DNA of 64,000 nucleotides. Source: Candidatus Micrarchaeia archaeon. GTDB taxonomy: Archaea; Micrarchaeota; Micrarchaeia; Norongarragalinales; CAINOH01. A program made the translations under genes and the position numbers. The notes beneath the pieces are model-generated. The model made no database searches. It saw nothing but the letters and a program-made list of their open reading frames with translations, and was not told where the DNA came from. The stretch covers positions 17,947 through 81,946 of the forward strand of contig JBAYMJ010000002.1 in NCBI GenBank assembly GCA_041663565.1, given 5' to 3'. Below, in pieces: positions 3,579-56,422 of this stretch. The stretch's first letter is position 1. Each line of letters starts with the position of its first letter.

Positions 3579-3586
3579 ACAGTCGA

Positions 3587-4252: not shown

Positions 4253-4328
4253 CTCACGGCTCGTGGAAGCTATTGGTTTTAAATCCGCAAAGCAAGAAGT
4301 CTTTATCTAATTTCAAGGGCGAATTGGT

Positions 4329-9078: not shown

Positions 9079-13002
<3,924 letters not shown>

Positions 13003-14748: not shown

Positions 14749-14769
14749 CGGCGTGCGGCATACTGGTAT

Positions 14770-15280: not shown

Positions 15281-15850
15281 ATGAAAGGCCAGACGTCACT
15301 TGAGTACCTGCTGATACTTGCAGGGACCGTGATGCTCGTGCTCCTCGTCTCGACCATAGTTAACTCCGCCATGGCGCCCGGGCTGGAGAACGCGAGAAAC
15401 AACAGCACCGCCCAGCTTTGGAACGCGTCAAACGACTGGGGGACGCCGACAATCCCGTCAACCACTGCCACCCCGACGCCCACGGTGGGCCCGATTGAGT
15501 TCTTCTTCCAGGTGCAGGACAACGGCGGCAGCAGCGTCGCATTGTTCCTGCCTACGGGCGACGTCGTCCTCAAGACCGGCTGCTACGCGGGGGCTGCGGG
15601 AAGCTGCGCCAACCCGCCGGATGGGTCGTTTGCGGTGAGGGACCCTGCGGGCGTCTCGCACGCGTTCATCAACCCGTCCGGAAGCCTCTGCATCGAGGAC
15701 GCAAACTGCAACGGGAACGACGCGAGCTGCAACAGCCCGCCCGACGACTCGTTTACGACGCAGAACTCCGCAGGCACTACTGTATCATACATAAGCCCGG
15801 CTGGCGCGCTTTGCCTTACGGGCAGCCTTGTCCAGTATGGGAACCCCTAG
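15281..15850 (+). CDS. Class III signal peptide (pilin-like) protein with an internally repeated head
   Basis: MKG/QTSLEYLLILAGTVMLVLLV and a Thr/Pro linker. Two clear repeats of about 40 aa follow (C..SC..PPD.SF.....AG......I.P.G.LC), preceded by a weaker third copy. Confidence 0.8.
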   Translation: MKGQTSLEYLLILAGTVMLVLLVSTIVNSAMAPGLENARNNSTAQLWNASNDWGTPTIPSTTATPTPTVGPIEFFFQVQDNGGSSVALFLPTGDVVLKTGCYAGAAGSCANPPDGSFAVRDPAGVSHAFINPSGSLCIEDANCNGNDASCNSPPDDSFTTQNSAGTTVSYISPAGALCLTGSLVQYGNP

Positions 15851-15858
15851 ATGATTTG

Positions 15859-17421
15859 ATGGACCGCTTCAGGATTTCGTTGACTGTCGCACTTTTCCTG
15901 TGCCTGCTGCAAGGCGCCTGCGCGGGAAACCTCAGCGTGAAGAGCGGACAGCTCAACATGACAGGCAACCTCTACGTCGGGCCCAACTATCTCTTCGTCA
16001 ACTCAACTTCGGGACTCGTCGGAATCGGCACAACTGCACCGGGAACGATTCTGGAAATCTCGTCAACAAACAACCCGCTAGCCGCGGGGTCCGCATCTAT
16101 ACTCCTGGCCGGCGACGTCAACAAGGAGCGCGTGGCGATACGCTCAAGCCAGGCTGCGGTATTCATTGCGGCCGGCCACCGGGGCACCGTTACGTCCCCG
16201 TCGGCCTTGCTTGCGGGCGACGCGATGGGTTACTACCAGCTCGGGGGGTACACGGGCACGGGATACACGCGAGCTGCGTGGATTACCGGATATGCAGAAG
16301 AGAACTGGAACGCAACGAACTGGGGAGGCAACCTCATATTCTCCACCATATCCCCCGGGACCACGTCCATCACCGAGAAGGTGAGGATAACCGGTGCGGG
16401 CAACGTCGGCATCGGCACGACGAACCCGGCAGCAAAGCTCCATGTCAATGGGGACGTGCGCATTACTGGGGATTCGTTTGATTCCATATTCATAAACCAG
16501 GGCGGGGCGTTGTATATCAGCGCTCCAAGTTCAAAGAAGATATATTTCGACACGACTGGAGTCGGACCGAAGGTTTCCTTTGATATGACTAGTGGCAACG
16601 TCGGCATCGGGACAACCGCACCGGCATCAAAGCTTCAGGTCTCCGGAGGCGAAATCCAGACCGGGACCAGCGGCACTGCCTGCTCGGGTTCCAATGCCGG
16701 CGCGATTCGTTGGAGCGGCTCGCACTTCTACGGGTGCACCGGCAGCTTCTGGATCCAGCTGGACTCGGGCGCGTACTCGTCATGCAACGAGATAAAGGCA
16801 GCAAGCCCTGGAGCCGGTGACGGCGCGTACACCATCTATCCGTCGGGCGTTGCAATCAACGTCTATTGCGACATGACCACCAACGGCGGCGGGTGGACAA
16901 TCGTAACTGCGCAGTCCGGAGCGGGGCAATACGGCCTTGCCGACGACACGGAAGCGACTGGCAACCCGTTGTCATACCAGGCGTACAACCTGAACCTGAT
17001 TAAAAAGATGTACATAAGCTCGGTCTCGTCGGAGTCGCTGATAAAGCGCAGCACCGGCGCCTGGATAAAGGCAAGCCACGCGCTGTTCGACAACAACCTT
17101 GTGGGCATGGGCAACCAGCACCCCCATTGGCAAGTCACTGTGACCGCCAGCAATGGTGCAACTGCTGCAAACTGCCAGATGGGCTACTCGAACTTCTATA
17201 ATTCGAATGGCGGCGACTTCGGCATAACCACCTCGGGGGTCGTCTTCGACCACCACAACCCCAGCACGTATTACCACTTGAACGCCGGCTGCGCAAGCAT
17301 GTACTTTTACAATTATGGCACTACATACAACGTGAACACCGCCTTGGGAGATTGGCCGGTGACGAATGCCTGCGTTCCCAGCGGGACCGAACTGGGCAGC
17401 TGGTACGCCGCGATGAGATGA
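15859..17421 (+). CDS. Secreted stalk protein with a C-terminal fibrinogen-related-domain-like head (paralog 1)
   Basis: Leader [40 protein letters not shown] and [16 protein letters not shown] motifs, neck [24 protein letters not shown], then CNEIKAASPGAGDGAYTIYPSGVAINVYCDMTTNGGGWTIV. Start set by paralog alignment. Confidence 0.85.
   Translation: MDRFRISLTVALFLCLLQGACAGNLSVKSGQLNMTGNLYVGPNYLFVNSTSGLVGIGTTAPGTILEISSTNNPLAAGSASILLAGDVNKERVAIRSSQAAVFIAAGHRGTVTSPSALLAGDAMGYYQLGGYTGTGYTRAAWITGYAEENWNATNWGGNLIFSTISPGTTSITEKVRITGAGNVGIGTTNPAAKLHVNGDVRITGDSFDSIFINQGGALYISAPSSKKIYFDTTGVGPKVSFDMTSGNVGIGTTAPASKLQVSGGEIQTGTSGTACSGSNAGAIRWSGSHFYGCTGSFWIQLDSGAYSSCNEIKAASPGAGDGAYTIYPSGVAINVYCDMTTNGGGWTIVTAQSGAGQYGLADDTEATGNPLSYQAYNLNLIKKMYISSVSSESLIKRSTGAWIKASHALFDNNLVGMGNQHPHWQVTVTASNGATAANCQMGYSNFYNSNGGDFGITTSGVVFDHHNPSTYYHLNAGCASMYFYNYGTTYNVNTALGDWPVTNACVPSGTELGSWYAAMR
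16594..16640 (+). repeat. 47-nt cassette identical to 18132..18178 (mid-gene, paralog 1 vs paralog 2)
   Basis: Direct comparison: ggcaacgtcggcatcgggacaaccgcaccggcatcaaagcttcaggt is identical in both genes, while the flanks diverge. Confidence 0.9.
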
Positions 17422-17501
17422 TTGGAATCTCGGAACGTTGACTTTAAGGAGAATTGTTGCCGGACAAATGAAACGACTCTAGGAAAATGGACATGCGATT
17501 T

Positions 17502-18860
17502 ATGGACCGCTTCAGGATTTCATTGGCCGCCGCGCTTTTCCTGTGCCTAGTGCAGGCCGCGTGCGCGGGCAACCTAAGCGTGAAGAGCGGACAGCTCAAC
17601 ATGACTGGCAACCTCTACGTGGGCGCTTCTGGGTCCGCGCTCTTTGTAAACTCAACGTCGGGTTACGTTGGAATTGGGACGACGAACCCAATCCGCGCAT
17701 TGCATATCTATGGCAACCCAGTTGTCGAACTCATACTTGAGGATGGCGCGGCAAATGCCGACTACCGGAAATGGAATTTCGTTGTCAACGGCGGCGCGGG
17801 GTCGAACAGCAGCTTTTACCTCCGCCAGCTCAACGACGCTGGAACTGCTGGCGCAGTCCCGTTCATGGTCAGCGGCGCAGGCAACGTCGGCATAGGCGCC
17901 AGCCCAATCAGCAAGCTGGAAGTCGCCGCATTGAACAGTTCCGTGGCAATCGGCGGTTACCTGGGGAACCCGCCGACATACCAGACAGGAATCCAGTTCC
18001 TCAACTACGGGGTATATCACGTCGGCTTGCGCTACGACGGCCAGGGCAACCTGATTTATGAAAGTGCGGGAAACAGCGTAAACCCGATGCTGTGGTATAA
18101 TGGCCAGCCCGCCAACTTCCTAGTGAGGAACGGCAACGTCGGCATCGGGACAACCGCACCGGCATCAAAGCTTCAGGTTTCCGGTGGCGAAATCCAGACG
18201 GGAACAAGCGGAGCGTCCTGCACGAGCGCCAACACCGGTGCAATACGCTGGGATGGCTCGTATTTCCTCGGGTGCACCGGCTCCGGGTGGGCGCGACTGA
18301 GCTACGGCACGTATTCCGCCTGCAATGCCATCAAGGTCGCCACGCCAAGCGCGGCCAACGGCACGTATACGGTATACATCAACAACACGGCAACACAGGT
18401 CTACTGCGACATGACCTCAGATGGCGGCGGGTGGACGCTGATTGTCGGCATCGGCCCGGACAACAACCACGACACCGCAAGCGCAGTCACCCCGGAGAAC
18501 CTCGTCTCGGCAACAGGCAAGGGCAAGTTCAGCGACGCCTGGATAAACCTCCTGCGGACCGCCCCGGGGACAGAGGGGATAGTAAGGCTGAACTGCGGCA
18601 CCTCAGTTGATTATTTCGACTACAGGACAACCGCGTGGCAGGCCACGTATACCGCCAACCCGAACGGGGTCGGCTGGGACGTGTACACCCAGCCGTGGGG
18701 GACCGCGCCGTACAGCGGCGGAGGGGCGAGCTACCCGAACCAGCCCGGGCCGTGGGCGTACTCGGTATGGGGCCAGAACACGATTTATGGCTATAGCGGG
18801 TGGACCGGCTGCTACACCGGTTCCGCAACTGGCGGCCCCGGCACGGTTTGGATGAGATAA
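17502..18860 (+). CDS. Secreted stalk protein with a C-terminal fibrinogen-related-domain-like head (paralog 2)
   Basis: [94 protein letters not shown] and CNAIKVATPSAANGTYTVYINNTATQVYCDMTSDGGGWTLIV. In-frame upstream ATGs at 17487 and 17493 are possible alternatives. Confidence 0.85.
   Translation: MDRFRISLAAALFLCLVQAACAGNLSVKSGQLNMTGNLYVGASGSALFVNSTSGYVGIGTTNPIRALHIYGNPVVELILEDGAANADYRKWNFVVNGGAGSNSSFYLRQLNDAGTAGAVPFMVSGAGNVGIGASPISKLEVAALNSSVAIGGYLGNPPTYQTGIQFLNYGVYHVGLRYDGQGNLIYESAGNSVNPMLWYNGQPANFLVRNGNVGIGTTAPASKLQVSGGEIQTGTSGASCTSANTGAIRWDGSYFLGCTGSGWARLSYGTYSACNAIKVATPSAANGTYTVYINNTATQVYCDMTSDGGGWTLIVGIGPDNNHDTASAVTPENLVSATGKGKFSDAWINLLRTAPGTEGIVRLNCGTSVDYFDYRTTAWQATYTANPNGVGWDVYTQPWGTAPYSGGGASYPNQPGPWAYSVWGQNTIYGYSGWTGCYTGSATGGPGTVWMR
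17511..17569 (+). repeat. 59-nt 5' cassette identical to 18902..18960 (leader region, paralog 2 vs paralog 3)
   Basis: ttcaggatttcattggccgccgcgcttttcctgtgcctagtgcaggccgcgtgcgcggg is identical in both copies. Paralogs 1 and 4 carry diverged versions at 15859.. and 20357.. Confidence 0.9.
18132..18178 (+). repeat. 47-nt cassette identical to 16594..16640
   Basis: See the partner copy; verified base by base. Confidence 0.9.
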
Positions 18861-18892
18861 ATATAATGATGTTTTGAGCCAGAGATGATTTC

Positions 18893-20320
18893 GTGAACAG
18901 CTTCAGGATTTCATTGGCCGCCGCGCTTTTCCTGTGCCTAGTGCAGGCCGCGTGCGCGGGAAACCTCAGCGTGAAAAGCGGCCAGCTCAACATGACAGGA
19001 AACCTCTACGTCGGCGCATCGGGCAACGCACTTTTTGTCAATACCGCATCGGGACTTGTGGGCATCGGAACGACAAGCCCTTCGCAGAGGCTCGACGTGA
19101 CTGGAACGGTCAATGCGTACGCTTTCACGGTCAACGGCTCGGCCTTCAGCACCAGCCAGTGGACGACTGCGGGCTCTAACATATACTATTCCTCAGGCAA
19201 CGTCGGCATCGGCACGACGAACCCGGCAACGGTGTTGCACATCTCCGGCCCGAACGAGGGAACCTCGACGTACTACTCCCAACTGAGGGTCGATGGGACC
19301 GGAGCCTACCCTTGGAACATTGCAGGAATTTCGTTGAACCCCAACGGGGCAGTCCAATCCCACCTTCGTTTTCTCGAGAATGGCGTAGTCAAGTTCCAAA
19401 TACGATACAACAACGGAAACACGCAGGATAGCAAACTGAAATTTTACAGCTTCATCACAGGTACGGACATGGCGACGTTTGATGCGACAAGCGGCTACGT
19501 CGGCATCGGGACAACCAGCCCCGCTTCCAAACTGCAAGTCTCCGGTGGGGAAGTCCAGGTGGGAAACAGCGGCGCCTCGTGCACAAGCGCCAACGCGGGC
19601 GCAATCCGCTGGAGCGGCACGCACTTCTATGGTTGCACAGGCAGCGGCTGGGCGCAGCTGGACTCCGCGGTATACCCGTCGTGCGGCGCCATAAAGACTG
19701 CAAACCCGAGCCTTTCCGACGGGGTATACACGATATACCCTTCGGGCATCGCCATGCAGGTTTACTGCGACATGACCACGCTGGGAGGGGGGTGGACGCT
19801 CGTTCTTCTCAACAGCCAGTATTCCGTCCCTCCGAAGCCGACCTGGACAAACGTCACAACCGGGAACGTCATTACCGGCACGTTCGGCTCAACCCTTGAC
19901 AGCGCGTTCGACCAGTTCCTTGGCGTCGCATATTGGAACACGCTGGGAACGCAGATGCGGGTCGAGGCGGGCAGCTCGTCCGCGTCGATTTCGCACCGGG
20001 CGCGCTACAACTTCACGCTCAACTCGGCGAACAACTATGCCCTGACCATGACGAACGCAATCCTTGACATAGGCTCGACCTACCCGGGAATGGCCACGTA
20101 CCACGCTGCGGGCAATTATCAGCTCTCGACCTTTGACGCGGACCACGACGTGTACTCCGCAAACTGCGCCAATTCCTACGGAAACACCGCCTGGTGGTAT
20201 GGAGCCTGCTGGGATGGGAACTTCTGGGGCGGCGGAGAATCGGGAAGCCACCAGAACAAGCCATTCTGGACCGGCAGCAGCGCGGACTACTACGACTGGG
20301 GCGCAATCTGGATACGGTAA
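18893..20320 (+). CDS. Secreted stalk protein with a complete fibrinogen C-terminal-like domain (paralog 3)
   Basis: GTG start; leader [23 protein letters not shown]. FReD hallmarks [41 protein letters not shown] and the distal [37 protein letters not shown]. Confidence 0.88.
18902..18960 (+). repeat. 59-nt 5' cassette identical to 17511..17569
   Basis: See the partner copy; verified base by base. Confidence 0.9.
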
Positions 20321-20356
20321 ATTAAACAGCAGTTCATCTAAACTAGTAACGATATC

Positions 20357-21697
20357 ATGGACCGGTTCAGATTCTCATTGTCTGTCACTCTCTTCTTGTG
20401 CATCGTGCAGGCCTCTTGCGCGGGCAACCTCAGCGTGAAGAGCGGACAGCTCAACATGACAGGAAACCTCTACGTGGGTCCTGCCGGAAACGCGCTTTTT
20501 GTAAACTCCACGTCGGGACTTGTGGGCATCGGCACCGCAAGCCCCTCGGCACAACTGCACGTTGTGGGCAACGCAGTCATCACCGGCAGCATCGGAATCG
20601 GGACAACCAACTCCCTTGCGAAAGAACACATCCTTTTGGGGTCTGCAGGGACTACGCCAAACTTCACCATCGCACCTTCCTTGATTTTGGAGCATTCCGG
20701 GTACGACGGCCAACTGCAATTTTTAGCCCCGTCAACAAGGGCATCTTACATCATGTTCGGCGACGAGCGGAATTATGCCCGTGGAAGCATAGTCTACGAC
20801 CATCGCGCCGGTTCGGAAATGCTGGCGCTTTCCAGCCAGAACGGAAGCATAACAATACTTGCAGGAGGCAACGTCGGCATAGGAACGACGAGTCCGGCGT
20901 CAAAGCTGCAAGTCACGGGAGGCGAAATCCAAACTGGCAACAGCTCCGCAGCCTGCTCAAGCGCCAATGCAGGAGCAATCCGCTGGACGGGCGTGGTGTT
21001 CCAGGGGTGCACGGGCACGAACTGGACGACGTTCAGTTTCGGCGGGCAGGACGGGTCGACCCAGCAGCGGGCGGGCATAAGCTGCAAGGCGATAATCAAC
21101 GCCGGCTTCTCGAAGGGCAACGGCAACTATTGGGTCGACCCCGACGGCGGGGACACGGTCAACGCGTTCCAGGCATATTGCGACATGACAACGGACGGCG
21201 GAGGCTGGACGAAAGTCTATCACGGGACACCGGACCAGGCGTCCACGACGATTGCGTACATTACGGGGACCGCGCCCCTAGTCACCACGTCGTCGACGAT
21301 GATGTTCGCGTTCTTTGACGAGACTACGAACGCCACGTCAAGCGCGTGGAAGTTCCAGACGCCGTCCGCATTCACCACCAACACGCCGATGGCGAACGTC
21401 CAATGCGGGTACGTGACAATCACTGCCACGAGGATAAGCGACAGCCTGACGGTCAGCAACGTCCTCCGGTACGGGTATGGCAGCTTCGGCAGCAGGTGCG
21501 ACGAAGGATGCAGCAGCACCTGGGGGCAAATCTGCCTGAAAAGCACCTCGGCCCAGGGAACCGCCGGCGGGTACGCCGATTTCCCGATGTACACGTCTTT
21601 TGCGTGGGCGGGATACGACAATTGCGCTAGGTCTGATGAGACGTATTCTACTACGCAGTGCCCGACGACCAAGAGGTTCGTGATATTCGTAAGATGA
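20357..21697 (+). CDS. Secreted stalk protein with a C-terminal fibrinogen-related-domain-like head (paralog 4)
   Basis: [94 protein letters not shown] and CKAIINAGFSKGNGNYWVDPDGGDTVNAFQAYCDMTTDGGGWTKV. Confidence 0.82.
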   Translation: MDRFRFSLSVTLFLCIVQASCAGNLSVKSGQLNMTGNLYVGPAGNALFVNSTSGLVGIGTASPSAQLHVVGNAVITGSIGIGTTNSLAKEHILLGSAGTTPNFTIAPSLILEHSGYDGQLQFLAPSTRASYIMFGDERNYARGSIVYDHRAGSEMLALSSQNGSITILAGGNVGIGTTSPASKLQVTGGEIQTGNSSAACSSANAGAIRWTGVVFQGCTGTNWTTFSFGGQDGSTQQRAGISCKAIINAGFSKGNGNYWVDPDGGDTVNAFQAYCDMTTDGGGWTKVYHGTPDQASTTIAYITGTAPLVTTSSTMMFAFFDETTNATSSAWKFQTPSAFTTNTPMANVQCGYVTITATRISDSLTVSNVLRYGYGSFGSRCDEGCSSTWGQICLKSTSAQGTAGGYADFPMYTSFAWAGYDNCARSDETYSTTQCPTTKRFVIFVR

Positions 21698-21756: not shown

Positions 21757-21921
21757 ATGATGGAACGGGCGCAGACTTCGCTTGAATACCTGCTGATACT
21801 CGCGGGCGCAATAATGCTCGTCCTGCTGGTGGCGCAGGTGATCACCGGCGCGATGCTGCCCTACAACTCCGCAAACAACGCGGCTGTGGCGACGGTCTGG
21901 CCGACGGGAATGAACGGTTGA
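21757..21921 (+). CDS. Mini class III signal peptide (pilin-like) protein, 54 aa; absent from the supplied ORF track
   Basis: Hand translation gives MMERA/QTSLEYLLILAGAIMLVLLVAQVITGAMLPYNSANNAAVATVWPTGMNG, stop TGA at 21919-21921. The N-terminal motif matches the other pilin-like genes here. Confidence 0.7.
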   Translation: MMERAQTSLEYLLILAGAIMLVLLVAQVITGAMLPYNSANNAAVATVWPTGMNG

Positions 21922-22580: not shown

Positions 22581-22734
22581 TACTGTGGATTCACTTTGTT
22601 GGGTGGGTTGCAAGTAGCACTTGGACGGCGAATATAAACAAAAGCTGACGCGATTTCCGGTGAAGCCGCCGGAACCCCGTCCAACAAAGCTGCAGATGCA
22701 GAACCAATAAAACGCCGTGCGCGATTGCATTAAT

Positions 22735-24447
22735 ATGGCAATACGCGGCCAGGGCGCCTTCGAGTATCTTCTGCTGCTTGGCGGGACGGTTCTTGTCGCG
22801 ACCATAGTCCTTGTGATGACGCAGGGGTCGATCCAAAACGCGAACAACACCTACGGTGCGGCGTCAGGCAATTACGCAGATTTTGTAACGGGCAGCGTAA
22901 ACGACATCTTCGCAAACGGCTCGCTCACGCACGAGGCGCCGACGGGCTGCATATACGGCAACCCGGCCTGCGATGCAGGCTACTACTGCGACAACGGAAC
23001 CTGCAAACAGGCTAATGCACTGCTCAAAGGGTACGCGCTCGACCCGGCCGGAGTTCCGCTTCTTGGAGTGACAATCCACCTTGTCGGCGGCAATACCGCA
23101 GACGCGCTCACCAACGCGTCCGGGTATTACGAGATGGCCTTCGCAATCAACGGCTCGTCCGCGATGTACGCTGCCACTGCCGCAAGAAGCCCCGCAAACG
23201 TGCAAGCCGGTGCGACGGTCAACCTTACTGCCGGCTTTGCAACAATCCAGAAATTCACCTTGAGTTATAACCCCGCGTCGCTTTCCGGTTTCGTGCGCGA
23301 CCCGGCAGGCAACGGGATTGCGGGCGTCGCGCTTTCGTGCGGTTCCTATTCGGCTACGTCCGGGAGCGACGGTTCCTATGCCATAGGCAACGTGCCAATG
23401 GCTTCCGCAAGCACGACCAGTACCCTTGCGGGGTCGAAGACTCCGACTTTCGTTTCCAACTCAACGCCGGCGACGTTCAACGCGGGCGTAACCAACTCGC
23501 AGAACTTGCAAATGTCCTATTCCAACGCGAATGTTTCAGGGTACGTACGTGACGTGTCAAGCGCAGGCGTAGCCGGCGCTGCGGTAAGCTGCGGCGGCGT
23601 GTCGACGACTACCGCAAGTGACGGCGCGTATTCGATAAGCGGCCTTTTGATGTCCGCTGCTTCTTCTTCGTGCACCCTCGCGGCCTCCAAGTCCGGTTAC
23701 ACTTCTGCAAGCGCAACAGCAACTCTTACTGCAGGCGCAATCACTTCGGGCCAGAACCTTGCCATCAATCTCATAGTCGTTGGCGCCTGCGGTTCAAGCA
23801 ACGGCGCGGCTTTCTATTCCGCCCCGTCCTCGGGCCTTTGCACTGCTGGAAGCGCTTCCGCATTGTCGGGCGCAGGGCCTTGGTCGTGGACTTGTGCCGG
23901 TACGTATGGCGGCTCAACCGCAAGCTGTTATGCAAACCTCATCGTGAACGGCGCGTGCGGCGCAGCTGCAACAAGCTATGCCTATTCTGCCGGCGGCTTC
24001 TCCGGCGCATTGTGCAATGCCGGGACGGCAAGCCCGAGCAGCCCATCGTTTCCTGCCGCGGGAGGGTCAACTAGTTGGGCCTGCCTTGGCTTGAATGGCG
24101 GAAGCGGCGCTTCCTGTTCGGCATCAAGGGCAAACCACCCCTGTGCAGTTGCAGGAGGAACGATATACGGGTCGTTCTGCCGTTTTAGCGGTTCGTCTTG
24201 CCCTGGCGGATGGACACAATATGGCAGCTGGTCAACGACAACGGCAGGACACAGCTCTTCTTGCGGCTGGGTAAGTTCGCCTTGGCCGGAACCGAGCTGC
24301 TGCAGCACCGGCTCCCACGACTTTTCCAATACCGCAGTGGAATCCTGCGGGTATTGGCAGTATTGTTGCACTTCGTGGACTTGCCCGACCAACTGTTGGC
24401 AGACCGCATCTGCAATCGTGACGGAAGTCGGGTGTTACCAGCCTTGA
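22735..24447 (+). CDS. Large class III signal peptide (pilin-like) adhesin with CarboxypepD_reg-like repeats and Cys-rich modules
   Basis: MAIRG/QGAFEYLLLLGGTVLVATIVLV; three G(Y/F)VRD..G.G(I/V)AGA.(L/V)SCG....T.SDG.Y.I repeats; two GACG...LC..G...........W.C.G..GG...SC modules; a Cys/Trp-rich terminal domain. Confidence 0.82.
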   Translation: MAIRGQGAFEYLLLLGGTVLVATIVLVMTQGSIQNANNTYGAASGNYADFVTGSVNDIFANGSLTHEAPTGCIYGNPACDAGYYCDNGTCKQANALLKGYALDPAGVPLLGVTIHLVGGNTADALTNASGYYEMAFAINGSSAMYAATAARSPANVQAGATVNLTAGFATIQKFTLSYNPASLSGFVRDPAGNGIAGVALSCGSYSATSGSDGSYAIGNVPMASASTTSTLAGSKTPTFVSNSTPATFNAGVTNSQNLQMSYSNANVSGYVRDVSSAGVAGAAVSCGGVSTTTASDGAYSISGLLMSAASSSCTLAASKSGYTSASATATLTAGAITSGQNLAINLIVVGACGSSNGAAFYSAPSSGLCTAGSASALSGAGPWSWTCAGTYGGSTASCYANLIVNGACGAAATSYAYSAGGFSGALCNAGTASPSSPSFPAAGGSTSWACLGLNGGSGASCSASRANHPCAVAGGTIYGSFCRFSGSSCPGGWTQYGSWSTTTAGHSSSCGWVSSPWPEPSCCSTGSHDFSNTAVESCGYWQYCCTSWTCPTNCWQTASAIVTEVGCYQP

Positions 24448-30387: not shown

Positions 30388-30463
30388 CTTCATCTGTTTT
30401 TCCAAGGGGGGCTTGGAGGATTTGATGAAGGATAAATGCCGCAAAAGCGGCTGGTTGTTGAAA

Positions 30464-30847
30464 CTACTGTCCCCACATGACCTTACGGCCCGATGTCAGC
30501 CGGTCCTTGCGGAACTCTCCCTGCATGTGGTAGTAGGAAGCGCCGAAAAGCGCCGCTACCCCGACTACGGGCATTGGCATGAGGGTGACTACGCCGATGA
30601 GCGCGAGCACCAGCGAGTACGACCGGAAGCGCAGGGCCTCCTTCCAAAGGGGAAGGTAGCTCTGGGTGTAGTTGTACCGGTTGGTGAGCTTCATCATGGG
30701 CTCCTTTGCGTCCGCAGGCACCGAAGTCATCTGGATGTCCCAGTTCTTTTCCGACGGCGCCTTGCCAGCTGGCGCTACCGAGTCCCCTACGGTAATCTGG
30801 TCCCCGCTTTTTGGGTTCAGCTTTGAAAGCATGTCCTGTATTGCCAT
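30464..30847 (-). CDS. Small membrane protein, member 1 of a five-gene paralogous cluster
   Basis: 127 aa; soluble N-terminal part, then a Gly-rich TM hairpin (SLVLALIGVVTLMPMPVVGVAALFGASYY). Lies 14 nt downstream of the preceding gene. Confidence 0.65.
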   Translation of the reverse strand: MAIQDMLSKLNPKSGDQITVGDSVAPAGKAPSEKNWDIQMTSVPADAKEPMMKLTNRYNYTQSYLPLWKEALRFRSYSLVLALIGVVTLMPMPVVGVAALFGASYYHMQGEFRKDRLTSGRKVMWGQ

Positions 30848-30861
30848 ATTTCATTCCCCCT

Positions 30862-31467
30862 CTACTGTGCGACTATTACCGAGCGTCCCTTCTGCCAAGT
30901 GACCTCGCTTCCGAACCCGTTCATGTGCTGCCCCCAGTAGTGGCCCCAAAGGTAGGCGAACACCACCGAGACAATCGGGTTGATGAAGTACGTCACTATC
31001 ATCATGAGAAAGCACACCATGGCCCAGAAGAAGCTGTTGTACTCTCCGGTCCAGCTGTCCTGCATCTCGATTCCCTTGAACTGGAAGCCCAACCGCTTTC
31101 CGAGGAAGTGGCCACGGGTGTCGATGTTGAACATGTGCATTGGCCGCGGCTCGCCTGTGAACGAGTCGTTGGGGCCCATCACGTCCCCCGAGCCGTCTAT
31201 CATCGCCGGGCCTTCCTTGTTGGTTGGCACGAACATCGGCATGTCGTAGCTCTCGTTGCCCGAGGCCTTCGCCGGAGCCTGCGCTCCTGCTGCCGGCTTT
31301 GCGGCTGCCGAGACTGCGTTGACCTTCTCGGAGTAGACTACCTTGTTGTTCCCGACCTTGTCCGCAGTGACCGGTATGGGCCACGACGCGGGTCCGTTGT
31401 AGATGTACTTTATCTCCTGCGGAGTGCCGGTAGCCTTTTTTGCCTGTGAAAGGTTGAGCAATGCCAT
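30862..31467 (-). CDS. Small membrane protein, member 2 of the cluster
   Basis: 201 aa from ATG 31465-31467. Contains MPMFVPTNKEG (shared with member 5) and C-terminal TM helices. The upstream part of ORF 30862..31650 overlaps member 3 and is rejected. Confidence 0.65.
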   Translation of the reverse strand: MALLNLSQAKKATGTPQEIKYIYNGPASWPIPVTADKVGNNKVVYSEKVNAVSAAAKPAAGAQAPAKASGNESYDMPMFVPTNKEGPAMIDGSGDVMGPNDSFTGEPRPMHMFNIDTRGHFLGKRLGFQFKGIEMQDSWTGEYNSFFWAMVCFLMMIVTYFINPIVSVVFAYLWGHYWGQHMNGFGSEVTWQKGRSVIVAQ

Positions 31468-31472
31468 TTTTC

Positions 31473-31727
31473 TCACAACACGAACGCCACAAGGAGCGCG
31501 TAAATCAGGCAGCCGAATGCGAGTATGTTTATCGGCGTGTCCGTAAGCCCGAACGGCCGGCCAAGCGAGTGGGTATCCCAAATCTCGCCCATGGTCGGGA
31601 TTGTGTCCGGGTTGTCGAGCACGCTGACAATCCCCGCGTCCTCTAGCCACATCACGATTTGGCTCGTGAGGGGCGCGTAGTAGAACGGCGCCTTGTTTTT
31701 GAATACTCCTTTTCCTGCCATAATCAT
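31473..31727 (-). CDS. Small tail-anchored membrane protein, member 3 of the cluster
   Basis: 84 aa with a single C-terminal TM (INILAFGCLIYALLVAFVL). 5-nt and 7-nt gaps to its neighbours. Confidence 0.55.
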   Translation of the reverse strand: MIMAGKGVFKNKAPFYYAPLTSQIVMWLEDAGIVSVLDNPDTIPTMGEIWDTHSLGRPFGLTDTPINILAFGCLIYALLVAFVL

Positions 31728-31734
31728 TTTCGCC

Positions 31735-32205
31735 TTAATCGACTGTCATGATTGTACGCTTTACTCCGAACGTCCAGCATCCCCAGCGCAGCCCTGCGCC
31801 GATTGCGCGGAAGCGCGCTGCGAGTGCGAACATCAATAGCGACCCTGCCGGGAACACCGTGAAAGTGAATATTGCCGCTGCCATCCAGAACACGAAGATG
31901 CACCAGGAAATCTTCTCCTTGCGCCACCCGTCGATGTATTCCATGACGAAGCCGTACCGGGTGTGGGTGCGCATCACCGGGAAGTCCTTCGGGTTGACTT
32001 CACAGCCCGCAGTAGTCATGACCGAGGTCGGCTCGTTGATCCCGCCCTTTCTCGGCTCTGCCTTGGCTGCAACGTCGGCCTTCTGCTTGGCGTAAGTGCC
32101 GTGGTATGCGCTCTCCTGGATGCCCGGAGCTACCGGCCGCTTGCCGTAGCCCGCCGGGTCGCCGAAACCGGAATTGTCCTGTCCTGGAGTGTGAAGTGAA
32201 ATCAT
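31735..32205 (-). CDS. Small membrane protein, member 4 of the cluster
   Basis: 156 aa; FPVMRTHTRYGFVMEYIDGW followed by a TM hairpin, alignable by eye to member 5. Confidence 0.6.
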   Translation of the reverse strand: MISLHTPGQDNSGFGDPAGYGKRPVAPGIQESAYHGTYAKQKADVAAKAEPRKGGINEPTSVMTTAGCEVNPKDFPVMRTHTRYGFVMEYIDGWRKEKISWCIFVFWMAAAIFTFTVFPAGSLLMFALAARFRAIGAGLRWGCWTFGVKRTIMTVD

Positions 32206-32215
32206 TTACATCAAC

Positions 32216-32599
32216 TTATGTAGCTTCGTAGAGCATACGCTGTTTCCAGTTGTTGCTCACGTAGAAGTCCTGCCACAGGTAACGGCCGTAGGCAAAGCCC
32301 GATGCCAGGCCGAATGCGCCTGCGACGAACACGTTACGCGGTATGAGAACGATTGCCATTATTGCAAGAAAGATTGCCGCAGCCTTGGCCACCTGCCATT
32401 CCTTGTAGATTCCTATTGACTCGTTGAGGTAGTCCTGGCGGCGCTTGATGTGCATTACCGCGTGCCCGTGGGTGTCAGTAGGCACGAACATCGGGATGTG
32501 GTTGTAGCCGCGCTTGGGGACGGTCTCGTCCGGAGTCTGGACCTGGCCGTAAGTGAGCATTTCCCTGCGGGCCTTTGAAAGTGAATAGTCTTTTTCCAT
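32216..32599 (-). CDS. Small membrane protein, member 5 (first gene) of the cluster
   Basis: 127 aa from ATG 32597-32599, preceded by the SD-like GAGGGGGA. HIPMFVPTDTHGHAVMHIKR, then the TM hairpin AAAIFLAIMAIVLIPRNVFVAGAFGLASGFAYG. Confidence 0.65.
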   Translation of the reverse strand: MEKDYSLSKARREMLTYGQVQTPDETVPKRGYNHIPMFVPTDTHGHAVMHIKRRQDYLNESIGIYKEWQVAKAAAIFLAIMAIVLIPRNVFVAGAFGLASGFAYGRYLWQDFYVSNNWKQRMLYEAT

Positions 32600-32647
32600 G
32601 TTCAACAAATCCCCCTCGATTTGCGTAACTATCTTTGGAATGACGAA

Positions 32648-32656
32648 ATATATAAA
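32648..32656 (-). promoter_or_regulatory. Candidate TATA box for the five-gene membrane operon
   Basis: Minus-strand GTTTATATAT about 50 nt upstream of ATG 32599, with an SD-like site in between. Confidence 0.35.
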
Positions 32657-32875
32657 CTGTTCGGTAGTAACAAACATTAATATCTAGTAGTCAATTGACG
32701 TAGTATTGAAATGGCATGAAAACAATAGTCGTCAAAAGACGTATTTTGTGGGGTTTTGCTGAGTGCCCTAGAGGCAAGCCACTACTCGCCAAACCGGCCA
32801 AGCCGGCGGTCCGAAGGGACGCAGCTCCATCAAACCACCCCGTTTTGAGGCCGCAAAGGCCGGCCGGGATACCGG

Positions 32876-36070: not shown

Positions 36071-36649
36071 CTAGTTTTCAAAACCAAAGGCAGGTACTTG
36101 GCCGTCCGTAAGGTTGGAAGTCGAATACAGCCCCTCGCCGAAGATGAACAGTTGCGAGCTGTTTGCTGACTCCAGGCCAAGACCGACATCCACCTTCGCG
36201 CACCCAAGTGCCTCGATTGCGGAGTCGTTGCCCCAGTACTTGACCTTGAGCACGGACTGGTTCGAGTCAAATGAAAGAACTTTTGAAAACGTGGCTTTTG
36301 CATCGCCGGCAAAAAAATCCACGTGCTTCGAAGGCTCTGCCCCACAACCCACCCACAGCGAAGGGACCAGCCCGCGTCTTTCCGACGCCTCAAACGCAAC
36401 CGAGGCCCATCGTGCGAGTTTTTCTGCCGCATCCTGTGCAACCTGCGCTGGCGTCGCGCCCCTTGCGCTTGCAAGCACCGCAAGGAAGGACTGCCGCAGG
36501 TTGGCCTCGAAAAAACGCGAGCGGGACAGCAAGACAAAGGTTGCCGCAGTATCGGCCTCGGCATCCGAGCGCGCCGAGGAATATGCTGCTGCCTTGAGCG
36601 CGAAGGGAATCACTATGAAAAGAAGCACCAGGCCGAGGAAACCGCGCAT
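36071..36649 (-). CDS. Pilin-like operon gene 6: MRG/F-type class III signal peptide protein
   Basis: MRG/FLGLVLLFIVIPFAL then a 170-aa soluble domain. ATG 36647-36649 lies 4 nt after the stop of gene 5. Confidence 0.6.
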   Translation of the reverse strand: MRGFLGLVLLFIVIPFALKAAAYSSARSDAEADTAATFVLLSRSRFFEANLRQSFLAVLASARGATPAQVAQDAAEKLARWASVAFEASERRGLVPSLWVGCGAEPSKHVDFFAGDAKATFSKVLSFDSNQSVLKVKYWGNDSAIEALGCAKVDVGLGLESANSSQLFIFGEGLYSTSNLTDGQVPAFGFEN

Positions 36650-36653
36650 AAAA

Positions 36654-37064
36654 TCAGTCGCCCCCGGCTTTCGCCTCGAAAACCACAAGCATCGCCCCGC
36701 CGTCCCTTGGCACGATTATGCGGTTGGTGGAAATGACTTTGGAAGATTTAGAAGGGGCTGCCGCAAATTCTGACAGTAAAATTTCCTTTCCGTCCGGACA
36801 ATGGACCGAAAACGCACTCGCGGCAAACGTGTCCGTTGCCTGCCTGAACTTTTCCCTCAATGCAATTTCCCCTTCCGCGCTTTCGCACGCCGACAATACC
36901 AGGTCGGGCTGCGACGAGGCCGCCAGTGCGATGTCTTCAAGCGCGGTTGAAAGCGCGACCGACTCTAGCGCGTGAACCGGCCGCGTCGCGTGCGGCATCA
37001 GGACCAAAAGCGCGCAGGCAACGGCGAATACTGCGGCGTCAACGAGCATCCAAAACCCCCTCAA
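36654..37064 (-). CDS. Pilin-like operon gene 5 (TTG start overlapping the upstream stop)
   Basis: TTG-RG/FWMLVDAAVFAVACALLVL. The TTG at 37062-37064 overlaps the TGA of gene 4 (TTGA). The only in-frame ATG would delete the RG cleavage context. Confidence 0.55.
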   Translation of the reverse strand: MRGFWMLVDAAVFAVACALLVLMPHATRPVHALESVALSTALEDIALAASSQPDLVLSACESAEGEIALREKFRQATDTFAASAFSVHCPDGKEILLSEFAAAPSKSSKVISTNRIIVPRDGGAMLVVFEAKAGGD

Positions 37065-37411
37065 CGGAAACAATACCTCCAGATGGAAATGCCGTTGACC
37101 GGGGTAGTGATTACGCGGTTCACGCAATAATCTCCACTTGCTTGCGCGGACTGCCCGGCTGGACGCAACGGCAACAGGAGCCCCGACTTGCACGATGCGA
37201 ACGCGCCCGAACACGACCACGCCTCCTTTTCGGACGCAAGGAACGCCTTGAGGTAGTTGTCCGACCGCGTTGCGACCTCGGCATACTGGCTTGCATCCCG
37301 GTGCATCGAGGAAAGAAGGACCGCAAGGCAAGCTATGACTATGGAAAAGGAGACTGCAGCCTCGGCCGTTGAAAACCCCCTGTTCCCATTGCACAGCAAC
37401 CCAAAGCTCAC
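37061..37411 (-). CDS. Pilin-like operon gene 4 (GTG start overlapping the upstream stop)
   Basis: No in-frame ATG exists upstream of the motif NRG/FSTAEAAVSFSIVIACLAVLL. The GTG at 37409-37411 overlaps the TGA of gene 3 (GTGA). Confidence 0.55.
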   Translation of the reverse strand: MSFGLLCNGNRGFSTAEAAVSFSIVIACLAVLLSSMHRDASQYAEVATRSDNYLKAFLASEKEAWSCSGAFASCKSGLLLPLRPAGQSAQASGDYCVNRVITTPVNGISIWRYCFR

Positions 37412-37764
37412 GCCGTTGGCACCCCTCCCGAAAGGTCGCTTACGATTGCGTTCTCGGCCCCGGAAATCTTCACGGGGCACTGCACCTCTTGGATTGCTTT
37501 GGACAGGTTCAAACCCGAAGTGCTTTCCGAAAACGGAAAACCCATCGACAAAGTTGAAGAGCGGAGCGAATAGCTTCCCAAAGTGACGCACGCAAGGCTT
37601 GCAGCTGAAAGCGGGGCGACCTTTCCCAGCCCTTCCGAGTCCAGGCGAAAGAGTGCGCTTTTGCTTGCGCCTACAAGTATGAACGCAGCGGCTGCGTAGG
37701 TTGCAAAGACAAGCAACGCCTCCAGCACCGCCTGACCCTTCCGTTTCCCTTTCATGGCTTCCAT
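37408..37764 (-). CDS. Pilin-like operon gene 3
   Basis: MEAMKGKRKG/QAVLEALLVFATYAAAAFILVG. A 39-nt tandem duplication of the leader lies at the 5' end. Confidence 0.65.
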   Translation of the reverse strand: MEAMKGKRKGQAVLEALLVFATYAAAAFILVGASKSALFRLDSEGLGKVAPLSAASLACVTLGSYSLRSSTLSMGFPFSESTSGLNLSKAIQEVQCPVKISGAENAIVSDLSGGVPTA

Positions 37765-37819
37765 AACCGCCTGTCCCTTTCGTTTTCCTTCCGTGGCTGC
37801 CCGCCCCCGCTGCCGACAA

Positions 37820-38257
37820 CTATCCTGCAAGGAAAATCCTGCACCCTGAATCATAGTAAACGCGGTAGGAGCAGGCCCCTTCGCAGGAACCTGATAGGAC
37901 GCAGTCGTTGGCAACCAAAAAGCTCGCCGGGCCGTCCCTTGAAGCGAATGAGACCACAACCGCCGACCTTTCGAAGTCGTAAGCTATTGCCGCCCCATCG
38001 GGAATGGACACCTTCCCGGAATACTCCGAGCTCTCTCCTGTTGCCTTCGCAAGCTCTGTAGCCGAATGCAGCTCCGCTGCAGCCCTCCTGCACTGCGAGG
38101 CCCTGCTTGCATCCAGCGACAGGCCGTAGGCTTGCGTGTAGGCCGGCGCAAGCAGCGCAACCAGCGCGGCTGACGCGCACAGCACAAGCATCGAGTCAAG
38201 CAGGCCTTGGCCGCGCTGTGCCCGGCAAGCTAAAGGGAGCATATGGCCAACCACCAT
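37820..38257 (-). CDS. Pilin-like operon gene 2
   Basis: ...CRAQRG/QGLLDSMLVLCASAALVALL, then a Cys-containing soluble domain. Start ambiguous between ATG 38257, ATG 38242 and TTG 38263. Confidence 0.62.
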   Translation of the reverse strand: MVVGHMLPLACRAQRGQGLLDSMLVLCASAALVALLAPAYTQAYGLSLDASRASQCRRAAAELHSATELAKATGESSEYSGKVSIPDGAAIAYDFERSAVVVSFASRDGPASFLVANDCVLSGSCEGACSYRVYYDSGCRIFLAG

Positions 38258-38277
38258 CGTCAATCCCTTTCCCCCAA

Positions 38278-38454
38278 CTATGGTTCGAATCCAGTCTGGT
38301 TCAGCAGGCCAACCGCGCGCTGCGAAGTCGAGTTGAGCTGACCCGAGAAATCCGATGCCGTACCCCGCACCTGGCCCAGGAACGCTATGGCAAGCGCCAC
38401 CAGCACGCCTATTATCAGCAGCATCTCCACCGAGACCTGCCCCTTTTCATCCAT
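38278..38454 (-). CDS. Pilin-like operon gene 1: 58-aa candidate major pilin; absent from the supplied ORF track
   Basis: Hand translation of the minus strand gives MDEKG/QVSVEMLLIIGVLVALAIAFLGQVRGTASDFSGQLNSTSQRAVGLLNQTGFEP, stop TAG at 38278-38280. Confidence 0.72.
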   Translation of the reverse strand: MDEKGQVSVEMLLIIGVLVALAIAFLGQVRGTASDFSGQLNSTSQRAVGLLNQTGFEP

Positions 38455-38564
38455 AGGGATTAAGACTGCCTGCGGACGGACAATAAGCTGGCGTGTAACT
38501 ATGCTAAACGCAAAGTTGCTCGCCCTGCTAGGCTTATTTATTCCCCGGTTGAGTAAATTTCTTG

Positions 38565-39323
38565 ATGAAATACCCGCTAGCCCTGCTGGCTGTTGCGCTC
38601 CTGCTCGCGATACCGCTAGCGCAGGCCTACACCGACCACTCGCTTTCGGTCACGGTCACCATCAAGAAGGACGGCACCGCGCACGTGCGCGAAAAGGCCA
38701 TATTCTACGTGGACAGCGACGCCGAGATAGAGGCGTTCAAGGACAACCTCAAGCTGGGAAAGAGCACCATACTCGCGTGGAAGAAGTTCTCCGACAACAT
38801 CCGCTACCACATAGGCGGGGTGCAGAGCCCGGTTGACAACCTCACCATCACCGCGGGCCCGGAGTACGACATCAAGCAGAACGCGCGCTCGGTCACGCTC
38901 GACTACGAGCTCGTTGACAAGTTCGTCGAGGGCCAGAAAATCGGCAGCAGGACGACCCACTTCACGCTCAACGAGGAAATCCTCGGGTTCGACAAGTCGG
39001 AGACGCGCCAGACGATACTCGGGAGCAACGTGTACTTCACCATCGCCCTGCCCCAGACGTCCTCGCTTGCCAAGAAGGACGGCGCGGTTCTCGTCGGGCC
39101 TTCGCCGTACGTGTACGACGAGTCAAACAGGACAATAACCTGGTTCGGGCCCAGCACCGGCCGCTGGGTGCTCGAATACGACGTGGAGGAGCCCCTGAGC
39201 GATGAGGTTTATGGCTTCTTCTCCGACCTCTACAACACCGCAGTCGAGCTCCTGCCGCTTGCCGTTCTCCTGATTTCAGCGGGCATCATCCTGACGATGC
39301 TCGTGAAGATGAAGCGCTTCTAG
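38565..39323 (+). CDS. Secreted protein with a C-terminal membrane anchor, unknown function
   Basis: Sec-type leader MKYPLALLAVALLLAIPLAQA/YT and a C-terminal TM (LLPLAVLLISAGIILTMLV) plus KMKRF. Divergent from the pilin-like operon. TATA-like CTTATTTATT lies about 27 nt upstream. Confidence 0.65.
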   Translation: MKYPLALLAVALLLAIPLAQAYTDHSLSVTVTIKKDGTAHVREKAIFYVDSDAEIEAFKDNLKLGKSTILAWKKFSDNIRYHIGGVQSPVDNLTITAGPEYDIKQNARSVTLDYELVDKFVEGQKIGSRTTHFTLNEEILGFDKSETRQTILGSNVYFTIALPQTSSLAKKDGAVLVGPSPYVYDESNRTITWFGPSTGRWVLEYDVEEPLSDEVYGFFSDLYNTAVELLPLAVLLISAGIILTMLVKMKRF

Positions 39324-40821: not shown

Positions 40822-40895
40822 GCCTCAGTAGCTCAGCCTGGGAGAGCGTTCGGCTGAAGACCGATGTGTCGGGTGTTCAAATCACCCCTGAGGCA
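40822..40895 (+). tRNA. tRNA-Phe (anticodon GAA), no intron, CCA not encoded
   Basis: Cloverleaf by hand: acceptor GCCTCAG/CTGAGGC, D arm GCTC..GAGC, anticodon loop CTGAAGA, T arm GGGTG-TTCAAAT-CACCC, discriminator A. One T:T mismatch at 27:43. Confidence 0.88.
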
Positions 40896-42612: not shown

Positions 42613-42733
42613 CCGGTCAGCGGTCATAGGAGAGGGGTCACGCCCGTTCCCTTTTCGAACACGGAAGCTAAGCCCTCTTACGACGTTGCTTGTACTGCCC
42701 GCATGGGTGGGAACGCATGTTTCCGCTGCCACT
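42613..42733 (+). rRNA. rrf: 5S ribosomal RNA, not linked to 16S/23S genes in this window
   Basis: GGTCAGCGGTCATAGGAGAGGGGTCACGCCCGTTCCCTTTTCGAACACGGAAGCTAAGCCCTC...GTACTGCCC...GGGAAC...CCGCTGCC resembles archaeal 5S (helix I pairing, the loop C TTCGAAC..GGAAGTTAAGC pattern, GTACTG). The ends are approximate to within a few nt. Confidence 0.85.
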
Positions 42734-53975: not shown

Positions 53976-54158
53976 TCAGTGGGACACGTTGCTCATGTTC
54001 TGGAGGAAGTCGACGAAGCTGTGCGTCTGGTCGGTTATGGCGTTGTTGGCCTGGCCTGCGGAGCCTTGGACTATCATTATGACTATTGCCGCTATGAGAA
54101 CGCTGCCGCCCAGTATCAGGAGGTATTCGAATGCGCCCTGTCCGCGGAACCTTGCCAT
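53976..54158 (-). CDS. Small class III signal peptide (pilin-like) protein, 60 aa
   Basis: MARFRG/QGAFEYLLILGGSVLIAAIVIMIVQGSAGQANN... from ATG 54156-54158. The upstream part of ORF 53976..54239 is not needed. Confidence 0.72.
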   Translation of the reverse strand: MARFRGQGAFEYLLILGGSVLIAAIVIMIVQGSAGQANNAITDQTHSFVDFLQNMSNVSH

Positions 54159-54257
54159 AGAAACCAAAAATACTAACTGCTCGGCGCTATAAATAAGCCA
54201 TACCCACTCGGGGGGTGTCGGGACAACCGCAAGGCCCATGTGCCCACCAGCCCGGGA

Positions 54258-56308: not shown

Positions 56309-56422
56309 TGGGCCTGGTGGGATTTGAACCCACGAACTTCCAGTTCGCCTAGAACCATAGTCCCTGAGGGGCTATGGCGTCATATAAGACTGGCACTCTG
56401 GACCAAGCTGAGTTACAGGCCC
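56309..56422 (-). tRNA. tRNA-Ile with anticodon UAU and a 37-nt intron at the canonical 37/38 position
   Basis: GGGCCTG-TA-ACTC-AGCTTGGTCCA-GAGT-G-CCAGT-CTTATA[TGACGCCATAGCCCCTCAGGGACTATGGTTCTAGGCG]A-ACTGG-AAGTTC-GTGGG-TTCAAAT-CCCAC-CAGGCCC-A. The intron holds a CCATAG/CTATGG hairpin. The variable region parses as 6 nt, which is atypical. Confidence 0.62.

Follow-up and report, generated by a model that had tools for sequence, protein, structure and literature searches.

The 64-kb window analyzed here, a stretch of DNA from a Candidatus Micrarchaeia archaeon (DPANN), carries on its minus strand an operon of six genes for small proteins with pilin-like N-termini (38454-36071). The genes were numbered g1 to g6 in transcription order. 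The first, g1 (38454-38278, 58 amino acids, aa), encodes a protein with the leader MDEKG and the putative mature N-terminus QVSVEMLLIIG. It is followed by g2 (38257-37820, 145 aa), with the N-terminus ..AQRG/QGLLDSMLVL, and by g3 (37767-37408, 119 aa), with ..KRKG/QAVLEALLVF. The fourth gene, g4 (37411-37061, 116 aa), has a GTG start and encodes ..NGNRG/FSTAEAAVSF, also written ..NRG/FSTAEAAVSFSIVIA. The fifth, g5 (37064-36654, 136 aa), has a TTG start and encodes LRG/FWMLVDAAVF, also written LRG/FWMLVDAAVFAVA. The product of the last gene, g6 (36649-36071, 192 aa), begins with MRG/FLGLVLLFIVI.

A sequence-only reading of the same DNA had described six consecutive minus-strand open reading frames (ORFs), each with a basic leader, a [KR]G site and a hydrophobic helix, and all of these features were found at 38454-36071. 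Hydropathy analysis showed exactly one hydrophobic segment in each of the six proteins, located at the N-terminus. To evaluate how frequent the pattern is, all stop-to-stop ORFs of 50 aa or more in the six frames of the window, 740 in number, were scanned for [KR][GA][QFIVLMA] with a hydrophobic stretch of 20 residues after it. The scan gave 13 matches: the consecutive genes g1-g6, six other evident class III proteins with a G/Q..EYLL site and one unclear ORF. At least 12 of the 13 are thus plausible class III proteins. Because so few ORFs of the window match and six of them are g1-g6, the pattern in the operon is not a matter of chance.

Conservation and selection

The six-gene order and the same neighbors are kept in at least seven related Micrarchaeia contigs. 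Both order and flanks are conserved in the loci L002, L004/L007, L006, L008 and L009 and in the more distant L011. On one side of the operon lie the RFC large subunit and a divergent gene for a 252-aa protein; on the other side lie PRTase, M50 protease, PurN, 5-FTHF cyclo-ligase and FolD.

Purifying selection acts on all six genes. Identities to the window proteins were determined by tblastn, and the ratio of nonsynonymous to synonymous substitution rates (dN/dS) was calculated by the Nei-Gojobori method at dS of at least 0.7. The g1 protein was 91-100% identical, with a dN/dS of about 0.03. The larger proteins were more variable: 48-72% identity and a dN/dS of 0.14-0.36 for g2, 57-84% and 0.14-0.29 for g3, 42-73% and 0.16-0.34 for g4, 49-72% and 0.12-0.28 for g5, and 62-83% and 0.10-0.20 for g6. 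The conservation of g1 across loci was found at a dS of about 0.8-1.1, and one pair of loci has an identical g1 protein at a dS of 0.76. The gene order kept in related contigs together with purifying selection indicates that g1-g6 are real genes, and the possibility of spurious ORFs was ruled out by dN/dS and synteny.

The distribution of the module was assessed mainly through g6. About 16 close relatives of the g6 protein, at 61-83% identity, were present in public data. A profile search of 1.84 billion representative proteins recovered only 8 representatives of the g6 family, one of them in the distant genome L011, which has the same six-gene operon, and another in the rearranged locus L013. 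Judged by these searches, the g6 family, the one tested, is lineage-restricted. A homologue search for g1 by word index gave at least three close relatives and was uninformative on its wider distribution. Literature searches gave no account of the operon in Micrarchaeota.

The L013 module (1971-4885) has a different layout. A g6-like gene comes first, followed by three pilin-like genes that overlap by 4 nucleotides (nt) and start with TTG (LKA/Q, LKG/I and LKA/I). A 144-aa g2-like gene, a DUF116 gene and a gene for a 55-aa g1-like pilin converge on these TTG-start genes. The locus encodes six proteins of the same kinds, beside RFC and a protein of ~250 aa.

Leaders and cleavage motifs

In the window and in all orthologues, each of the six proteins begins with a short basic leader that ends in [KR]-[GA] and is followed by a hydrophobic helix of ~20 residues. 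The orthologue alignments showed little or no variation in the [KR]G site and the ~25 residues that follow it, and free variation in the length and sequence of the segment before it. For the same gene, the leader ranges from 3 to about 21 residues between genomes. The g2 orthologues, for example, have the leaders MHSRG, MKCSKRG and MALTLQHRRG and one leader of 21 residues. The residue at +1 is Q in g1-g3 and F, I, V or L in g4-g6. The sequence-only reading had proposed pilin-like leaders of two types, and this pattern of a variable leader with a cleavage motif and helix kept among orthologues, which resembles that of cleaved class III signal peptides, speaks for it.

The motif of g2 is an invariant RG/Q[AG][LV]LDSM (Q+1, D+5) and that of g3 is [KR][GA]/QAVLE[AS][LM]L (Q+1, E+5). 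In g4 the motif is RG/F[ST][TV][AI]E (F+1, E+5), which is of bacterial type, and in g5 it is [KR]G/[FIVL]WML[VA]D. In distant homologues of g6 the basic leader is longer (MADAVKKRG/F and MGRKRRG/F), and others read VRG/V, MKA/V or MKG/F. An acidic residue is found at +5 in g1 (E), g2 (D), g3 (E) and g4 (E). In all g5 orthologues the acidic residue (D) is at +6, and g6 has none nearby. Archaellins and bacterial tip pseudopilins also have no acidic residue at +5, so its absence does not exclude membership in class III.

Outside the helix, each of g2-g6 has at least two invariant ectodomain cysteines. There are five invariant cysteines in g2, four conserved ones in g4, and two invariant ones in g6, the largest subunit, which also has several N-x-S/T sequons. 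The cysteines fit an extracytoplasmic location of these domains. In g1, an N-x-T sequon at N41 is kept in every orthologue. The sequence features give good support to counting the six proteins among the class III signal, type IV pilin-like proteins.

Start codons and gene junctions

The start/stop overlaps reported earlier, GTGA at 37411-37408 and TTGA at 37064-37061, were located at exactly these coordinates. The translational coupling that had been proposed from them fits the 4-nt overlaps, which are conserved at the junctions. Furthermore, the same overlapping position uses ATG, GTG or TTG in different loci, as expected if the non-ATG junction starts of g4 and g5 are genuine. The window uses GTG at the g3/g4 junction, L002 and L004 use ATG, and L008 and L009 use TTG. 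The g4/g5 junction has TTG in four loci (the window, L002, L008 and L009), and L004 and L011 have ATG there. In all loci a Shine-Dalgarno (SD)-like GGAGG(T) is located 7-12 nt upstream of both junction starts; for g5 this element is GGAGGT, 7-10 nt upstream. The conserved C-terminus of g3, DLSxGVPTA, overlaps the SD-like element and the start of g4.

The further claim that g4 and g5 have no usable ATG was correct for g4 but not for g5, in which an in-frame ATG at 37049, five codons after the TTG, would give a protein beginning MLVDAAV. Gene callers use this codon in several orthologues. The internal ATG was rejected, and the junction TTG favored, because the junction codon is ATG in L004 and L011, where the protein reads MKG/VWMLVD and MTGFCRG/LWMLAD, respectively, the latter with a 7-residue leader. 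The spacing from the SD-like element also argues for the junction start, as does the preservation of [KR]G[FIVL]W through different codons: the Gly codon changes synonymously, and four hydrophobic codons occur at +1. Starts of this kind, GTG or TTG overlapping an upstream stop, are often missed by automatic callers, and g4 and g5 are consequently truncated in several public assemblies.

The remaining starts were also compared. In all loci g1 begins with ATG and lacks an SD-like element; several of the downstream genes use TTG or GTG. The start of g6 is ATG in all loci and GTG in one relative; in this genome its leader consists of only three residues. The g3 start is ambiguous, with ATG 37767, ATG 37758 and TTG 37830 as candidates. 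The TTG overlaps the end of g2, and its position is kept in three orthologues. The g3 leader contains a tandem duplication of (G)KRKGQAV in the window (37740-37790, minus strand) and in L009 (4838-4900), giving two candidate cleavage sites; the duplication is absent from the other loci. In L006 (9184-9260), the frames of the TTGA start of g4 and of the RGFSTAE body differ by one base, and the junction codon of g5 is CTG. The frame shift is either an assembly indel, a sign of a decaying copy or a non-canonical start.

Family searches and structure models

The g1 protein matched the Pfam family Flp1_like at 5.7e-7 (29.3 bits, below the gathering threshold, GA, of 33.5) and PF04021 Class_IIIsignal at 7.5e-5 (23.0 bits, just below the GA of 23.7). 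Additionally, its orthologues were pre-assigned to PF16982 (Flp1_like). It is an Flp/EpdE-like, helix-only pilin without a globular domain. The sequence-only reading had likened the one tiny subunit and five larger ones to a major-plus-minor pilin set, and the near-threshold matches of g1, the assignment of its orthologues and the similar make-up of published clade 1 pili are in keeping with that comparison.

For g2-g6 no match was obtained in Pfam, NCBIfam or PDB, although distant orthologues were scanned too. Sequence-profile searches of the PDB with g1-g6 also returned nothing meaningful. The five larger proteins represent undescribed families that are absent from Pfam and NCBIfam. When the profiles were aligned with each other by hhalign, g2 and g3 had only the N-terminal 30 columns in common (E 1.4e-6) and nothing was found between g4 and g5. 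Thus, g2-g6 are not recent paralogues.

Profiles of minor pilins from other systems were included in the searches. None of the GspH/I/J/K or ComGD-GG profiles matched g2-g6 above its cut-off; g4 reached 14 bits with NCBIfam ComGE (cut-off 49) and 13.8 bits with XpsI (cut-off 150), at E 0.04. There was no match of g2-g6 to TadE, TadF or TadG (PF07811, PF13400, PF16964) at E <=1, the sole match being that of TadF to g1 at E 0.098.

The sub-threshold ComGE and XpsI matches of g4 are of interest for the idea that the module is a short pseudopilus, like that of type II secretion or competence systems, used for uptake or export and perhaps for acquiring DNA or nutrients in a host-dependent DPANN cell. 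One small major protein and five minor ones in a coupled operon resemble the GspG-HIJK and ComGC-GDGEGFGG sets, and coupling at near-equimolar levels fits a short, defined structure. However, the g4 matches lie far below the cut-offs and cover the N-terminal helix only, and the operon has no linked gene for a secretin, an ATPase, a platform or a DNA receptor, in the window or in the flanks of related loci. Moreover, an archaeal pseudopilus of the type II secretion system (T2SS) or Com type goes unmentioned in the available portions of PMC4858521, PMC4187195 and bioRxiv 10.64898/2026.04.22.720090. A pseudopilus is therefore regarded as very improbable.

AF2 models were obtained for g5 and g6. 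The g5 model had a mean pLDDT of 80.5, with a core above 90, and consists of a transmembrane (TM) helix, a break at P24, a helix at residues 30-50 and a four-stranded sheet, a predicted layout that would correspond to the general pilin plan. The confidence of the g6 model was moderate (mean pLDDT 64.6). With either model, Foldseek found nothing in the PDB at E <=0.001, and neither was recognized as a pilin. The top-ranking structures (kinesin, sialidase and ribosomal uS3) were dismissed as not meaningful. A match of the g6 profile to the TAL-effector repeats in the PDB, at E 5e-21, was likewise rejected as an artefact of repeat summing, since no single stretch passes alone. The g6 segment VLASAKGATPAQVAQDAA (~25 residues, about 53-79; window 36420-36500, minus strand) resembles the core of the TAL-effector repeat, ..HGLTPEQVVAIAS.., and it matches each of the many repeats weakly, so that the scores add up and the E-value is inflated.

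These models, taken with the short leaders, leave some room for a reading in which only g1-g4 are pilins, and g5 and g6 are uncleaved bitopic signal-anchor proteins acting as basal assembly or alignment factors like PilN/PilO or GspL/GspM. In this genome the helix of both proteins is preceded by just M/L-R-G and there is no acid at +5. The alternative ATG of g5 would remove the RG motif, and an AGGGG upstream could be its SD element. Moreover, the g5 and g6 models, which combine helices with a small alpha/beta domain, were not recognized as pilins. However, Foldseek did not match them to PilN, PilO or GspM either. In distant orthologues, g5 has a 7-residue leader ending in RG (L011) and g6 has leaders of 7 and 9 residues ending in RRG and KRG. 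The codon evidence on the g5 start, synonymous Gly codons and four different hydrophobic codons at +1 within a conserved [KR]G[FIVL], also argues against an uncleaved anchor. We consider this reading improbable.

Prepilin peptidase and other class III proteins in the window

A gene for a class III signal/prepilin peptidase of the Peptidase_A24 family is present at 59246-60172 on the plus strand. It encodes a protein of 308 aa with about 7-8 hydrophobic segments and a GGGD motif, which matched Pfam Peptidase_A24 at 2.1e-11 (44.6 bits, above the GA of 26.5). The only named match was to NCBIfam FlaK_Arch; it was weak (5e-7) and far below the cutoff, and the protein is longer than the 230-position FlaK profile. 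This peptidase likely processes the six leaders.

Further class III proteins with the motif [KR][GA]/Q[GT][AS][FL]EYLL are encoded at 14749-15222(+), 15281-15850(+), 21757-21921(+), 22717-24447(+), 53976-54161(-) and 61721-63007(-). Among them are two short (~54-60 aa), stand-alone, Flp-like pilins and one 576-aa protein with CarboxypepD_reg domains. The G/Q..EYLL proteins could belong to other filaments or include the true major pilin.

Their presence introduces an alternative in which all six proteins of the operon, g1 included, form a low-abundance priming or tip complex and the bulk of the filament is built from a stand-alone short pilin, such as 21757-21921 or 53976-54161. The window does contain two other helix-only pilin genes of ~54-60 aa in addition to several larger G/Q..EYLL proteins, and the tight linkage of g1 to g2, by a 4-nt overlap in L011, would tend to give similar expression levels. 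Published clade 1 systems usually keep their major pilin genes stand-alone (PMC4858521; PMC4187195); a parallel is Methanococcus maripaludis, in which the major pilin EpdE is encoded outside the minor-pilin operon. However, g1 is by far the most constrained gene of the operon (dN/dS about 0.03), as expected of a filament subunit that packs against itself. It is also the first gene, starts with ATG everywhere and has no SD-like element, in contrast to the TTG and GTG starts of several downstream genes, and even the rearranged L013 has it in the module. An operon of minor subunits only is therefore considered unlikely, but it is the strongest of the alternatives weighed here.

Comparison with known systems

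The archaeal clade 1 or "system 1" (Epd) pili combine a major pilin of ~60-70 aa without a globular domain with five or more minor pilins (PMC4858521; bioRxiv 10.64898/2026.04.22.720090). They are reported from methanogens, Thermococcales and DPANN, and the preprint presents the bacterial Tad pili as thought to derive from archaeal Epd-like pili. The substrates of the M. maripaludis peptidase EppA carry Q at +1 and are acidic at +5, and PibD accepts leaders of only 3-4 residues (PMC4187195). The Q+1 and +5 acid of g1-g3 match this published EppA-substrate signature.

The closest described system is the Epd pilus of M. maripaludis, with EpdE/MMP1685 as major pilin, EpdA-D as minor pilins and the peptidase EppA. 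Both have a very short pilin without a globular domain and at least five minor pilin-like proteins encoded in one operon. The leaders of g1-g3 are of the Q+1/acidic +5 kind, and the pilin genes lie apart from those of the ATPase and platform; the minor pilins, the major pilin and the ATPase/platform of M. maripaludis are likewise at separate loci (PMC4187195). There are also clear differences. The short pilin heads the minor-pilin operon here, whereas it is a stand-alone gene in Epd. Half of the subunits use G/F-type sites, and some leaders have no more than three residues. The peptidase is encoded at a distance of 21 kb rather than within the operon, and the additional non-pilin genes of the 11-gene epd operon are absent. 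Moreover, g2-g6 have no detectable similarity to annotated families in Pfam, NCBIfam or PDB. For comparison, the Epd system has a 9-TM EppA-type peptidase (arCOG02300) and a clade 1 ATPase with two TadC-like platform genes.

The bacterial Tad/Flp pili are similar in having a helix-only pilin of ~50-60 aa with Glu at +5 and accompanying pseudopilins with similar leaders, and g1 scores on Flp1_like. However, g1 has G/QVSVEM and Flp has G/XXXXEY, there is no match to the TadE/TadG families, and no tadV-rcp-tadZABC genes are adjacent. The bacterial minor pseudopilin complexes (GspH-I-J-K, FimU-PilVWX and ComGD-GG) resemble the module in their four or five consecutive genes for small pilin-like proteins near that of the major subunit. 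One large member is without Glu5 (GspK/PilX-type; here g6), and g4 has the G/F(S/T)xxE site. This resemblance is one of function only; there is no structural match, and the archaeal host has neither outer membrane nor secretin. Since the family profiles of their minor pilins were tested and did not match above cut-off, the likenesses to Tad and to T2SS/Com systems are analogies only.

In view of these comparisons, the best reading is that of an archaeal type IV pilin module with a major and five minor pilins, related in kind to the Epd or "system 1" pili and known here from its pilin genes and an A24 gene. It is proposed that g1 is the filament subunit and hence the putative major pilin. We consider it reasonably probable that all subunits of a type IV pilus-like filament of a Micrarchaeia archaeon are encoded in this operon, and the function of such a filament is probably adhesion or host contact.

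Proposed assembly

In the proposed mechanism, the six proteins would insert into the membrane via the N-terminal hydrophobic helix, and the A24 aspartyl peptidase would cut after the conserved [KR]G. Mature g1 would have 53 residues, forming one helix with a short, glycosylatable tail, and would serve as an Flp/EpdE-like fiber subunit. The minor pilins g2-g6, with their small cysteine-containing ectodomains, may form a priming or tip complex on which g1 polymerizes. By analogy with bacterial GspK and PilX, g6 is the candidate tip or terminal subunit, because it is the largest and the only member without an acidic residue near +5. An ATPase and a platform encoded elsewhere in the genome would drive polymerization. 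The SD-like elements, 4-nt overlaps and often weak TTG/GTG starts may couple the translation of the minor subunits and keep them at low, near-equimolar levels relative to g1.

Several observations weigh against a complete pilin set with g1 as its major member. The absence of any Pfam, NCBIfam or PDB match for g2-g6, even with distant orthologues, is one, and the failure of Foldseek to recognize the g5 and g6 models as pilins is another. Neither an assembly ATPase gene nor a TadC/FlaJ-type platform gene was found in the window, nor in the 10 kb on either side of the operon in any related locus. In this genome g5 and g6 have leaders of just three residues, the acidic residue of g5 is at +6 rather than +5, and g6 has none. 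As Q+1 matters for EppA cleavage in M. maripaludis, a combination of G/Q and G/F substrates may need a peptidase of broad specificity or a second enzyme. Furthermore, g1 is co-transcribed with the other genes and overlaps g2 in L011, so that a large excess of g1 must come from translation alone. One of the stand-alone short Flp-like pilins (21757-21921 or 53976-54161) could be the true major subunit.

A more far-reaching version of the type IV pilin module was also considered. It would be an independently evolved, Micrarchaeota-specific counterpart of the bacterial minor-pilin priming/tip complex, in which five unrelated pilin-like proteins with both G/Q and G/F maturation cap a helix-only, Flp-like fiber and, with the ever-adjacent 252-aa membrane-anchored protein, form the organelle for host contact of these ultrasmall, host-dependent archaea. 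This extension is considered unlikely.

Micrarchaeota, like other DPANN archaea, rely on physical contact with a host cell, and the surface structures that mediate it are largely unknown. The locus provides a compact, conserved and apparently complete subunit set, and thereby concrete targets for DPANN surface biology. It is also a natural test case for the action of one archaeal A24 peptidase on both G/Q and G/F sites with leaders down to three residues. No new principle is involved; rather, the known repertoire of archaeal type IV filaments is extended.

Upstream region and neighboring genes

The intergenic region between g1 and the divergent gene (38455-38561, about 107 nt) has a mean identity of 80% across six loci and exceeds the synonymous sites of the genes on both sides in conservation. 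It contains the invariant blocks GGAATAAATA, GCAACTTT, GTTTAGC, TTACACGCCAG and TTATTGTC, and probably holds both promoters plus a regulator site. The conserved TTATTGTC sits about 30 nt upstream of the g1 ATG, and since g1 also has no SD-like element, its mRNA may be leaderless or short-leadered. A scan with Rfam found nothing in or beside the operon.

The divergent gene (38562-39323, plus strand) encodes a protein of ~252 aa that starts with a secretory signal and ends with a TM anchor; its TM segments span residues 1-25 and 223-253. The protein had no match in Pfam or NCBIfam. The gene adjoins the module in every locus that is long enough: L002, L003, L004, L006, L008, L009, L010, L011 and L013. 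Its synteny suggests a possible role as an accessory or anchor component.

Beyond FolD there is a conserved cluster of five small genes (about 127, 155, 83, 201 and 127 aa), located at about 30400-32700 on the minus strand of the window, at 13987-16097 in L002 and at 7720-9853 in L008, with no Pfam match in any related locus. Between pilin-like genes, at 15811-21697(+), lie four tandem paralogous genes for proteins of 446-536 aa with a common N-terminus. One of these has a weak Fibrinogen_C match, and they may be adhesin-like surface proteins. An ORF of 1305 aa at 9085-13002(+) encodes a CDC48-like AAA ATPase with an intein-like insertion in the first ATPase domain. Rfam identified two tRNAs and a 5S rRNA in the window, at 56309-56422(-), 40822-40895(+) and 42616-42731(+). 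The tRNA at 56309-56422(-) spans 114 nt, which makes an intron probable.

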